DNA from: Phycisphaeraceae bacterium
Lineage (GTDB): Bacteria; Planctomycetota; Phycisphaerae; Phycisphaerales; Phycisphaeraceae
Length of the DNA stretch: 64,000 nucleotides
NCBI GenBank assembly: GCA_963674705.1
Contig: OY771506.1
Span: 3,488,001-3,552,000 of the forward strand
Reading direction: 5' to 3'
Shown here: one piece after another, positions 62,603 to 64,000 of the stretch
How the letters are laid out: each line of letters begins with the position of its first letter
Position numbering within the stretch: position 1 is the first letter of the stretch
Made by a program: the position numbers and the translations under genes
Notes under the pieces: model-generated
Seen by the model: only the letters and a program-made list of their open reading frames with translations
What the model was told of the DNA's origin: nothing
The model's database searches: none

Positions 62603-63460
62603 TCACCTGTTCACCTGCTCACCTATCTTCATCCCGCACTCCGGGCATTCGGTTCTTCCCGCTGCGACCGTGCCGCGCAGGTCGTAGCCGCAGTTTTCAC
62701 ATGAGGGTAATAGCCTCGTGCGACGGTATTTTTCGCGCCAGTAGAGCAGGATGATCCCCGGGCCGAACGCCCATAGTAATACCGTGCCTGCAAGTACGAG
62801 CGTCGTATAGGTTCCGCGGCAGCAGTAGCATTCACGCTGTCTCGCTGCCCAGATATGGACGGGCACAGCAATGAACAGCTCCAGGATACTGCCAACGATC
62901 AGGGCACGGATCATCTTCCCGAGTTGCGTGTAGCGGTCACCTTGTCGCCAGTAGATGAAAAAGATGACCGCCCAGAAAATCCAGATGATGAGCATGCCCG
63001 CCCAGATGTAGAAGACGCCTTTGCCATCATGTGCTTCCATAACCGGTTGCCAGAGGTTGGGTAGCTCCATCAGCAGGGCGATCCCTCCGGTCGACAGCAG
63101 CATCGCCATGATGGCCGCGGTGATAATGGCCGTTTTCAGAGGTCGGCCTTCTTGTGTCAGTCGAACGGTGAAACCTTTGCCCGGACGAAGGAACGCCCAT
63201 TGTGCCAGCATGAGCAAGCCCATGAACAGAACCACATTCACGGCGTATTGCCAATCTTCCAGTTCCCATAGGGCCCCGGGGGTCAGGGGCGTCCCCATCA
63301 GGCCGGCAAAGATCGATTCGTGACCAAATGGAGAAGCGCCGAACACATGCTCGCCCCAGTAAGGCGAGGTGATCCAGCCCAATCCCAGGATCACATAGAG
63401 CAGCCCGGCTATCAGGATCAGCCGACGCATGCGGTATGCTTTGTGTTGGCAGTGCGTCAT
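62603..63460 (-). CDS. Multi-TM membrane protein with C-terminal zinc ribbon
   Basis: About 6 TMs; CYCC; CENCGYDLRG..CPECG. Confidence 0.8.
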   Translation of the reverse strand: MTHCQHKAYRMRRLILIAGLLYVILGLGWITSPYWGEHVFGASPFGHESIFAGLMGTPLTPGALWELEDWQYAVNVVLFMGLLMLAQWAFLRPGKGFTVRLTQEGRPLKTAIITAAIMAMLLSTGGIALLMELPNLWQPVMEAHDGKGVFYIWAGMLIIWIFWAVIFFIYWRQGDRYTQLGKMIRALIVGSILELFIAVPVHIWAARQRECYCCRGTYTTLVLAGTVLLWAFGPGIILLYWREKYRRTRLLPSCENCGYDLRGTVAAGRTECPECGMKIGEQVNR

Positions 63461-63546
63461 CGGCCTCTCCGCGGTAGTGGGGGGCGAGTTGCTATTAAGA
63501 AGACGGATTGCCCCTCGTTAAGAATCGGATAAATCAGGATTCCCGG

Positions 63547-63576
63547 TTGACAATACCCCATTCTGTGCGATACTTT
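63547..63576 (+). promoter_or_regulatory. Sigma70-type promoter for the leader/aroF transcript
   Basis: Perfect TTGACA (63547-63552); TG-c-GATACT (63566-63574) or TACTTT as -10. Confidence 0.65.
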
Positions 63577-63582
63577 GGGGTT

Positions 63583-63654
63583 ATGAACGAGCGGTACTTC
63601 TTTTTTGGCTACTTTTGGTTTGACCGGACGCACGCCGCGTTGGGCAAGATGTAG
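63583..63654 (+). CDS. Aromatic amino acid attenuator leader peptide MNERYFFFGYFWFDRTHAALGKM
   Basis: 23 codons; 8 of 9 consecutive codons are Tyr/Phe/Trp; lies between the promoter and a terminator upstream of DAHP synthase. Confidence 0.85.
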   Translation: MNERYFFFGYFWFDRTHAALGKM

Positions 63655-63681
63655 TCAACCGCCTGGACTTGACGAATCACC

Positions 63682-63710
63682 ACCCCGACGCGGAAGCGTT
63701 GGGGTTTTTT
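63682..63710 (+). terminator. Attenuator terminator
   Basis: ACCCCGACGC-GGAA-GCGTTGGGGT-TTTTT, 110 nt upstream of the aroF start. Confidence 0.85.
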
Positions 63711-63820
63711 AATTGGGTACGAGGCAAGCCGATGATGTGGTATTGGCGCAATATGAACTTTACACGGGCAGGGGCGTACGATGCGCCCCTCGCCCGACAG
63801 GAACACAAAGGAGCGTAGCG

Positions 63821-64000
63821 ATGATTGTTGTCATGAGGCCGGATGCGACGGAACAGGAGGTGGACCACGTGGTCCAGCTGGTTAACGAAATGGGACTGAC
63901 CGATCACGTGATCCACGGTACGGACCTGACCGTCGTGGCGGTGATCGGCGACGACCGCAAGAAAGACGGCTCCGTTCTCGAACGTGCGGCGGGTGTCGAC
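63821..64000 (+). CDS. aroF: DAHP synthase type I-beta, N-terminal regulatory domain; runs off the right edge
   Basis: AAGGAG SD; MIVVMRPDATEQEVDHVVQLVNEMGLTDHVIHGTDLTVVAVIGDDR matches the ACT/ferredoxin-like N-terminus of I-beta DAHP synthases; catalytic domain lies outside the window. Confidence 0.82.
   Translation, partial: MIVVMRPDATEQEVDHVVQLVNEMGLTDHVIHGTDLTVVAVIGDDRKKDGSVLERAAGVD

Follow-up and report, generated by a model that had tools for sequence, protein, structure and literature searches.

The window analysed here is a stretch of 64,000 nt from a Phycisphaeraceae bacterium of the phylum Planctomycetota (assembly GCA_963674705.1, contig OY771506.1, forward-strand positions 3,488,001 to 3,552,000), and coordinates given without a contig or locus name count from its first letter. 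Close to its end, a 361-nt intergenic gap lies between a divergent membrane-protein gene on the minus strand and the gene aroF on the plus strand. Towards aroF, the gap contains a promoter, an open reading frame (ORF) of 23 codons, a GC-rich hairpin with a T run, a spacer of 110 nt, and finally the Shine-Dalgarno (SD) sequence and the ATG of aroF (Table 1). An original prediction had interpreted this arrangement as a leader-peptide attenuator in front of a gene for 3-deoxy-D-arabinoheptulosonate 7-phosphate (DAHP) synthase, and all of its parts, from the promoter over the ORF to the hairpin with its T run, sit at the positions given for them. Consensus scans for promoters and terminators, which covered 63300-64000, led to this promoter and this terminator as the sole such sites, with 0.2 promoters expected from shuffles. 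With a probability of about 0.88, the element is a leader-peptide (ribosome-mediated) transcription attenuator, predicted to control the only DAHP synthase gene found in the genome.

Table 1. Parts of the aroF leader region, in order of position in the window.
Feature	Position	Strand	Basis
Sigma-70-type promoter: -35 TTGACA (63547-63552), 16-nt spacer, TG (63566-63567), -10 GATACT (63569-63574)	63547-63574	+	10/12 matches, extended -10
Predicted transcription start; 5' untranslated region of 0-2 nt	63581-63583	+	Deduced from the 8 nt between -10 box and ATG
Leader ORF, 23 codons and TAG (63652-63654), encodes MNERYFFFGYFWFDRTHAALGKM	63583-63654	+	ORF reading
Control codons 5-13: TAC TTC TTT TTT GGC TAC TTT TGG TTT (Y F F F G Y F W F)	63595-63621	+	Sequence
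Region 1, 5' strand of the anti-antiterminator (1:2) hairpin; partner 63637-63648	63619-63631	+	Minimum-energy fold
Region 2, antiterminator strand CCGCGTTGGG; partner CCCGACGCGG (63684-63693)	63635-63644	+	10-bp duplex
Intrinsic terminator: 10-bp stem (63682-63691 with 63696-63705), 7 G-C pairs, loop GGAA, T run 63705-63710	63682-63710	+	Terminator scan
SD sequence AAGGAG of aroF	63808-63813	+	Sequence
aroF, type I-beta DAHP synthase, ATG at 63821; continues past the window (whole gene L002:822-1880, 352 aa)	63821-64000	+	Domain searches

The gene downstream of the leader encodes a DAHP synthase of type I-beta that carries a ferredoxin-like domain at its N-terminus. Its product matched PF00793 with 248 bits and the ferredoxin-like domain PF18152 with 72.5 bits, and it scored well above the cut-offs of the NCBIfam models NF006421 (453.8 bits, cut-off 335) and TIGR01361 (356.9 bits, cut-off 267.75); with models for 3-deoxy-D-manno-octulosonate 8-phosphate synthase the scores stayed far under the cut-offs. 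The assignment as DAHP synthase, on which the original prediction depended, was therefore correct. The genome is a single contig of 5.54 Mb with a completeness of 96.6%, and aroF is the sole DAHP synthase gene found there. A second PF00793 match in the genome turned out to be KdsA (TIGR01362, 334.3 bits) and was rejected, and searches of the 5.54 Mb for type I-alpha (TIGR00034) and type II (PF01474) DAHP synthases gave no match.

When AroF was searched against 41 genomes, the window's own included, 27 matches were obtained at E <= 1e-60. The 500 nt upstream of aroF were inspected for the joint presence of three features: an ORF in which F, W and Y make up at least five of ten residues, a hairpin followed by a T run, and a promoter abutting the ORF. 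Upstream ORF (uORF), terminator and promoter occurred together at 24 of the 27 aroF loci of these sampled relatives, and at the three exceptions (L018, L021, L028) aroF follows another gene or a tRNA. A separate set, drawn from public genome contigs, comprised 80 aroF loci, of which 65 contained the uORF and 60 all three features. A covariance model (R1) was built from 23 leaders, with L004 omitted as its leader is identical to that of the window. R1 matched 68 of the 80 public loci, always upstream and on the strand of aroF, and in the window's genome it gave one match with E = 1e-20; the next best (C1:3853110, E = 0.65) is at chance level and was rejected. Across the order, 45 of 151 genomes were matched, each of them once except for one genome with an extra weak match (E = 0.006). 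The matches included 30 of 39 genomes in family f1 and 14 of 19 in f5, and none were obtained in f2 (0/40), f3 (0/39), f4 (0/11) and f6 (0/2); no AroF at E <= 1e-60 was found among 13 sampled genomes of these last four families. All 29 R1 matches that were examined sit 21-165 nt upstream of aroF. Pooling of the loci led to 98 distinct upstream sequences, 81 of them with a uORF, and the combination of uORF and terminator was detected in 78 of the 98, compared to none of their 98 reverse complements. As the pool includes 29 loci picked by R1, 24/27 and 65/80 are the unbiased figures for conservation. A search of related genomes for conserved aromatic uORFs and covarying stems had been proposed as a check of the prediction, and it gave a positive result on both counts, as terminator and antiterminator also covary.

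For the analysis of pairing, two leader alignments were used, A1 and A2, the latter consisting of 68 sequences fitted to structure other than the antiterminator, and slid controls were calculated by moving the pairing partner by 1-3 columns. The terminator stem was paired in 95.7% of the cells of A1, with six pairs changed on both sides, and in 96.7% of the cells of A2, with seven such pairs; a rule-based terminator was present in 78 of the 81 leaders. The original prediction had further proposed that region 2 competes for the 5' arm of the terminator, and the two strands can indeed form a 10-bp duplex of -20.9 kcal/mol, compared to -18.1 kcal/mol for the terminator hairpin; none of 300 dinucleotide shuffles equalled this duplex. 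This antiterminator was paired in 88.3% of the A1 cells (slid, 39-46%) and in 85.7% of the A2 cells (slid, 36-44%), with seven and 21 cells, respectively, changed on both sides, and none of 500 shuffles reached the pairing values on the alignments. Examples of joint changes are the exchange of GACGCGG with CCGCGTT for GATGCGG with CCGCAT, and CCCTGACGCGGC with GCCGCGCCAGGG. The peptide encoded over region 2 is not kept (ALG, AQG, RQG, ATG, AAG and others), whereas the pairing is. Of the upstream strands that could pair with the terminator 5' arm, the best one lies past the last core aromatic codon and at most 15 nt beyond the stop codon in 74 of 78 leaders. The median energies of the 78 leaders were -20.5 kcal/mol for the antiterminator duplex and -17.4 kcal/mol for the terminator hairpin, and in 58 of them at most 10 of 200 shuffles matched the duplex.

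The position of region 2 relative to the reading frame is likewise conserved. Measured from the first base of the last aromatic codon, the strand of the window starts at a distance of 16 nt, and its end precedes the stop codon by 8 nt; in the 78 leaders, measured likewise from the last core aromatic codon, the start is mostly at 13-17 nt (mode 16) and the end precedes the stop mostly by 5-10 nt (mode 8). The sizes of ribosome footprints are established knowledge, and, as read from the sequences, this spacing is what the footprint model requires, in which a stall would free the strand and a ribosome at the stop codon would mask it. From start codon to T-run end, 77 of the 78 leaders measure 120-150 nt. 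The minimum-energy fold of the window's leader contains the 1:2 hairpin as well as an outer helix of GGCTAC (63606-63612) with GTAGTC (63651-63657), and the proposed upstream pairing that encloses the antiterminator strand was thereby recovered. The outer helix was paired in 72.6% of the A1 cells, mostly inside the genus. Taken together, the conserved uORF, the covarying terminator and antiterminator and the conserved footprint spacing argue for the trpL/pheL-type logic that had been suggested for the site.

Folding with a masked ribosome, which had also been proposed as a check, gave mixed results. With the ribosome masked at the stop codon, the terminator of the full leader was intact in all 78 leaders, and with the ribosome on at least one aromatic codon it was broken in 52 of the 78. 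When the transcript was folded before the 3' arm and with a ribosome on an aromatic codon, the 5' arm was paired with region 2 in 75-76 of the 78 leaders. In the window's own sequence, only one of eight aromatic stall positions breaks the terminator of the full leader.

This last result is one of several that weigh against the attenuator. Among the 78 leaders, the terminator was kept at most stall positions, and in 26 no stall breaks it. Without any ribosome, the terminator of the full leader was intact in only 64 of the 78, and in folds of the shorter transcript that still lacks the 3' arm, 70 of the 78 showed the pairing of region 2 with the 5' arm despite the missing ribosome. The 1:2 hairpin is poorly conserved, with 70% of cells paired on A1 (slid, 40-47%) and 55-58% on A2; slid partners gave 37-48% over the two alignments. 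Two of the first 24 leaders (L026, L027) are without a convincing antiterminator, 17 of the 98 distinct aroF upstream regions lack a uORF, and the counts given above are not independent, since related sequences share ancestry. Equilibrium folding thus supports the antiterminator, but a firm hold by the 1:2 hairpin and a switch driven cleanly by thermodynamics find no support in it, so that the decision of the switch would have to be kinetic, as in the classical systems.

The promoter lies close to the leader ORF in the window, and this geometry is shared by the relatives. The test asked for a promoter of at least 8/12 matches whose -10 box ends 6-13 nt ahead of the start codon. It was positive for 78 of the 81 leaders, compared to 0/81 at aroF starts and 37/3595 at random positions. 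The spacing between -10 box and start in the 78 leaders was 6 nt (n = 31), 7 nt (n = 13), 8 nt (n = 8, the case of the window), 9 nt (n = 16), 10 nt (n = 7), 11 nt (n = 2) or 13 nt (n = 1). An SD-like 4-mer precedes only one of the 81 uORFs, compared to 80 of 81 aroF genes, and no SD-like word was detected upstream of the window's leader ORF. Transcription usually begins about 7 nt past the -10 box, and with the observed spacing the message would thus begin with the AUG or only a few nt away from it. In line with the original prediction, translation of the mini-gene therefore probably takes place on a leaderless mRNA.

The following course of events would be consistent with these data. RNA polymerase would start at the AUG or within 2 nt of it, and a ribosome would likely load on the 5' end without an SD sequence. 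As long as charged tRNA-Phe, tRNA-Tyr and tRNA-Trp are plentiful, this ribosome would reach the UAG at 63652 and its footprint would cover region 2, by which the terminator would form and end transcription at the T run. Shortage of an aromatic aminoacyl-tRNA would instead arrest the ribosome within the control codons, above all at the last codons Y-F-W-F, where it would cover region 1 and leave region 2 free, as this strand starts 16 nt past the last aromatic codon. The free strand would then pair with the emerging 5' arm of the terminator, no terminator would form, and the polymerase would read into aroF. Without a ribosome, a long imperfect hairpin (63606-63657) may hold region 2 such that termination prevails, which is the least supported step of the scheme.

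In the leader ORF of the window, F, Y and W account for eight of nine consecutive codons (codons 5-13). Such a density is rare: in a six-frame reading of the 5.54 Mb genome, only four stop-to-stop frames contain at least eight F, W or Y in ten residues, the leader being among them. Another of the aromatic-rich frames, at C1:1605331 (MFFFIFGFLWY...), was dropped, as it belongs to an AT-rich stretch before a long frame that shows no link to aromatic synthesis. The exact leader peptide was absent from a collection of 15 billion proteins. On average, the 81 leaders contain 4.5 Phe, 1.4 Tyr and 1.2 Trp codons, and all three aromatic residues are present in 72 of them. When the 81 leaders were aligned on the last core aromatic codon, the positions read backwards from this codon were occupied by Phe (74/81), Trp (56/81), Phe (55/81), Tyr (29/81, the commonest residue there) and Gly (31/81), and the residues flanking the core vary. 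The motif FFFGYFWF is encoded by four synonymous DNA versions. Within the leaders, TTT is used 249 times and TTC 112 times, and TAT 69 times and TAC 48 times; in the long ORFs of the window's genome, to which this comparison is confined, TTT makes up 26% of the Phe codons and TAT 33% of the Tyr codons. All three residues are represented among the last four codons Y-F-W-F, as would suit a multivalent sensor at the sole DAHP synthase found, and we infer from the codon pattern that the leader senses all three aromatic amino acids. Shared ancestry could also have caused the positional pattern of Y-F-W-F.

The same attenuator may in effect be a sensor of Phe, with Tyr and Trp codons as tolerated neighbours that add little. 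We regard this as possible, though less likely than not, and two observations speak for it: the dominance of Phe codons in the leaders, and the aroR leader of Corynebacterium glutamicum with its Phe-Tyr-Phe core, for which the review PMC11802643 describes increased transcription on Phe limitation. The same review states that Tyr availability has no effect in this studied analogue, which counts against sensing of all three here, as does the single Trp codon in the window's leader. Against a Phe sensor stands the retention of Trp at the next-to-last core codon in 56 of 81 leaders, together with Tyr as the commonest residue two places earlier, since a stall at these codons would cover region 1. 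The presence of all three residues in most leaders likewise speaks against it, and aroF is the sole DAHP synthase found, so that the gene feeds all three branches.

The position-by-position conservation of the core, which exceeds that of many classical leaders, would also be expected if ...G-Y-F-W-F... worked as a nascent arrest peptide similar to TnaC, with free aromatic amino acids in the tunnel of the ribosome as the signal instead of tRNA charging, and acted on the same RNA switch downstream. We consider this very unlikely. Across genera, the core varies freely in F, Y and W and in length (FAYSGFWFWF, FYYFWFWF, WFFFYFF, FDWFAFYF), which fits selection for a codon class and not for one arrest motif, and the residues past the core track the RNA pairing and not a peptide pattern. 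In addition, such sensing would turn aroF on in the presence of ample amino acid, which is the wrong sign for biosynthesis.

For an attenuator, aroF should depend on read-through of the terminator. No promoter-like site was found by consensus scan between the terminator and aroF (63711-63820), and none adjoined aroF at any of the 81 related loci. The T run begins at most 45 nt before the aroF ATG in 14 of the 78 leaders (minimum 25), leaving room for an SD sequence only. From these data, expression of aroF is predicted to depend on read-through. The same observations bear on the idea that mini-ORF and terminator form a separate small gene, encoding a hydrophobic micropeptide or a small RNA, with aroF having its own promoter. 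The 110 nt between T run and aroF in the genus would be enough for a promoter, and the spacer holds conserved elements. Such a promoter was detected neither in the spacer nor at the related loci, the short distances in 14 relatives hardly allow for one, a stand-alone gene gives no role to a covarying antiterminator and a fixed spacing, and the element is found only beside aroF; the idea is thus highly improbable. Equally improbable is a translation-independent RNA switch (a riboswitch, a T-box or a protein-bound leader such as that of TRAP) with an incidental ORF: the pair of terminator and antiterminator alone is compatible with it, but no Rfam family matched, and the frame, its promoter-adjacent start and the run of aromatic codons are kept while the nucleotides drift, synonymous changes included. 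A cmscan of 63400-63900 with E up to 10 gave no leader, T-box or riboswitch family, and no Rfam family reached its gathering score in the 7 kb around the site (L002). Five weak matches (OmrA-B, NsiR1 and others) with 10-19 bits, compared to gathering scores of 39-77, were dismissed as chance.

Two further observations concern transcription of the locus. A 230-nt contig from a hypersaline-lake metatranscriptome (run X1) aligned to 63628-63857 with six mismatches and spans the terminator; it was not counted, as it is a single low-depth contig of a relative, carry-over of DNA is possible, and an assembled contig reveals neither RNA ends nor one continuous transcript. Nine nt past the aroF stop codon begins a gene for a GNAT acetyltransferase of 384 aa (PF13527, with weak likeness to Eis; L002:1890-3044, plus strand), which is probably co-transcribed with aroF and would then be under the same attenuator.

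Ribosome-mediated attenuation is best known from trpL-trpEDCBA and pheL-pheA of Escherichia coli, which follow the model of Yanofsky and are represented in Rfam as Trp_leader and Phe_leader. The aroF leader resembles trpL and pheL in its control codons, in a strand that pairs either with the 5' arm of the terminator or upstream, in the masking stop codon and in the intrinsic terminator. It differs from them in that the E. coli leaders have an SD sequence and a 5' untranslated region, respond to one amino acid each and precede branch-specific operons; moreover, no Rfam family matches here. The review PMC11802643 summarises the two E. coli attenuators as the model system and describes the DAHP synthase genes of E. 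coli as being under repressors that bind aromatic amino acids.

Closer to the present case is the aroR-aroF system of C. glutamicum, outside the Planctomycetota. A leader peptide with Phe-Tyr-Phe was proposed before aroF by Mentz et al. (2013; PMC4046766), and Neshat et al. (2014), as cited in the review PMC11802643, reported that the aroR attenuator acts under Phe limitation, with no effect of Tyr supply according to that account. Both systems have an aromatic-codon leader before a DAHP synthase gene, and ribosome stalling is said to raise read-through in C. glutamicum. As far as the published description of aroR allows a comparison, its core consists of Phe-Tyr-Phe without Trp, whereas the leader here holds eight aromatic codons of three kinds. 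The enzyme class also differs: TIGR00034 (type I-alpha) and PF01474 (type II) each found a match in the C. glutamicum genome and TIGR01361 found none, in contrast to the type I-beta enzyme here. For Deinococcus deserti, De Groot et al. (2014; PMC4007540) mapped leaderless transcripts and listed 14 putative leader peptides, among them an annotated leaderless 'DAHP synthase leader peptide' MKLRSAFFYWFGVPRA. As presented there, it lies on a leaderless transcript with a mapped 5' AUG, a design that is probable for our leader, and it shares with our leader the position upstream of a DAHP synthase gene and a core (F-F-Y-W-F) that holds all three residues. The D. deserti peptide has 16 aa compared to 23 aa here and comes from another phylum; moreover, it was predicted from start mapping, whereas the leader described here rests on comparative and covariation support, with a predicted start. 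Leaderless leaders are described from Actinobacteria as well, namely the leader peptide of C. glutamicum ilvBNC (PMC11857589) and the polycysteine short ORFs of mycobacteria, for which attenuation of operonic gene expression is reported (bioRxiv 10.1101/834739). As is probable for the present leader, these are, by those accounts, translated from the mRNA's 5' end without a ribosome-binding site, but the amino acids sensed and the genes controlled are different ones.

The original prediction had also presumed that such an attenuator was new to planctomycetes. A full-text literature search, which covered few subscription journals and is thus not proof of absence, found no report of leader-peptide attenuation in Planctomycetota. 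The novelty is accordingly restricted to the phylum, as attenuators of the same kind are in print for Corynebacterium and annotated for D. deserti in the sources cited above. The aroF leader is thus a real and well-conserved DAHP synthase attenuator, probably leaderless, of a kind already known and in a phylum for which no printed case was found. It leaves the textbook mechanism unchanged. Gene regulation in Planctomycetota is little explored, and the comparative data point to the use of a classical ribosome-sensing switch by two families of Phycisphaerales at the committed step of aromatic synthesis. For annotation, a covariance model and a rule for an otherwise unannotated small ORF are gained, such peptides being missing from the 15-billion-protein collection. 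The leader might further offer a natural setting in which to study how leaderless translation is coupled to transcription, and serve as a candidate amino-acid-responsive part for engineering these bacteria, which are hard to manipulate.

Similar leaders also precede DAHP synthase genes in other families of the phylum, probably on leaderless messages. Outside the order, an aromatic uORF with a terminator was found before type I-beta genes at five of 40 sampled loci (four in family f25, one in f54). These uORFs (L198, L201, L203 and L207 in f25, L211 in f54) are longer, with motifs such as ...GGSFFYSFWFSY..., ...GRFYGFGFWYP..., ...FRRFFWFTS... and ...WHFFGYWFTT..., and the genes behind them encode type I-beta enzymes with the ferredoxin domain; at L203, the -10 box ends 6 nt before the ATG. 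A further type I-beta locus, from family f85 (L143 in genome G391), gave a weak R1 match, and another weak match outside the order (L145) was false. Among 28 type I-alpha loci, a clear leader was detected in two genomes of the same genus (G362, G446) and weaker ones in G434 and G452. In G362 (L144, L168; C2 ~858957-859087) and G446 (L167), which belong to another Planctomycetota family, the leader V...GFYFGYSYFGWRQPGRRGAA and a terminator precede the type I-alpha gene (TIGR00034, ~460 bits), and the same device thus appears to be used with a different enzyme class.

The spacer between terminator and aroF contains two elements of its own. A second mini-ORF (63732-63818, plus strand) begins with ATG ATG TGG TAT TGG..., encodes MMWYWRNMNFTRAGAYDAPLARQEHKGA and stops 2 nt before the aroF ATG. 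Its start, M-x-x-Y-W with the invariant GGTATTGGC, is found in 11 of 12 genus-level spacers, and its length varies within the genus, being 7, 8 or 28 codons or continuing into aroF. The fold shows a small hairpin here, one arm being formed by the start codon and the other by the Y-W codons. The mini-ORF could be a second checkpoint for Tyr and Trp, or a mere RNA motif. Also in the spacer lies a strong GC hairpin (63765-63796, plus strand; CGGGCAGGGGCG ... CGCCCCTCGCCCG) without a T run, 12 nt before the SD sequence of aroF. It is kept across the genus by compensatory changes, with very different loop lengths, and sequestration of the SD sequence by this hairpin was not seen in the fold. As a speculation that we consider rather doubtful, the genus leader might be a two-stage multivalent sensor, in which the leaderless Y-F-W-F attenuator would integrate the charging of three tRNAs and the second mini-ORF, which runs through the covarying GC hairpin, would act as a translational Tyr/Trp checkpoint that couples ribosomes onto aroF; the device as such would then be an old invention common to the Planctomycetota, used also before type I-alpha enzymes, and not a recent local one.

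On the other side of the gap, the divergent neighbour (62603-63460, minus strand) encodes a multi-pass membrane protein of 285 aa with a C-terminal CxxC...CxxC motif, which had no match in Pfam or NCBIfam. Across the window's genome, a scan for the architecture of the aroF leader led to three distinct sites, namely the aroF leader itself, a Leu-rich ORF, and C1:4721967. The pattern required TTGACN, a spacer of 16-18 nt, a -10 box whose end lies 5-11 nt ahead of an ATG or GTG, a reading frame of 8-45 codons and, behind it, a hairpin with T run. At the Leu site (G000:C1:2716422, plus strand), TTGACA is followed by 18 nt, TACGAT, 9 nt and ATG, and a terminator lies behind the ORF. The ORF has 27 codons (MNHRNSPITASKFVGLLLSLKLMECAG), with five Leu in eight residues (...GLLLSLKL...), and the product of the gene after it begins MSQSTENDSSSRTPIRIFDTTLRDGEQSPG and is presumably a 2-isopropylmalate synthase (leuA-like). 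From its layout, the Leu-rich ORF is probably a leaderless Leu attenuator. One more weak R1 match, L141 (G217:C33:42776-42907, minus strand) from a class-level relative, was rejected as an aromatic leader and turned out to be a poly-Cys mini-ORF, MAACTCCCCTCCCSCERSDPPGG, with 11 Cys and a terminator upstream of a gene; this mini-ORF is probably a cysteine-sensing leader.

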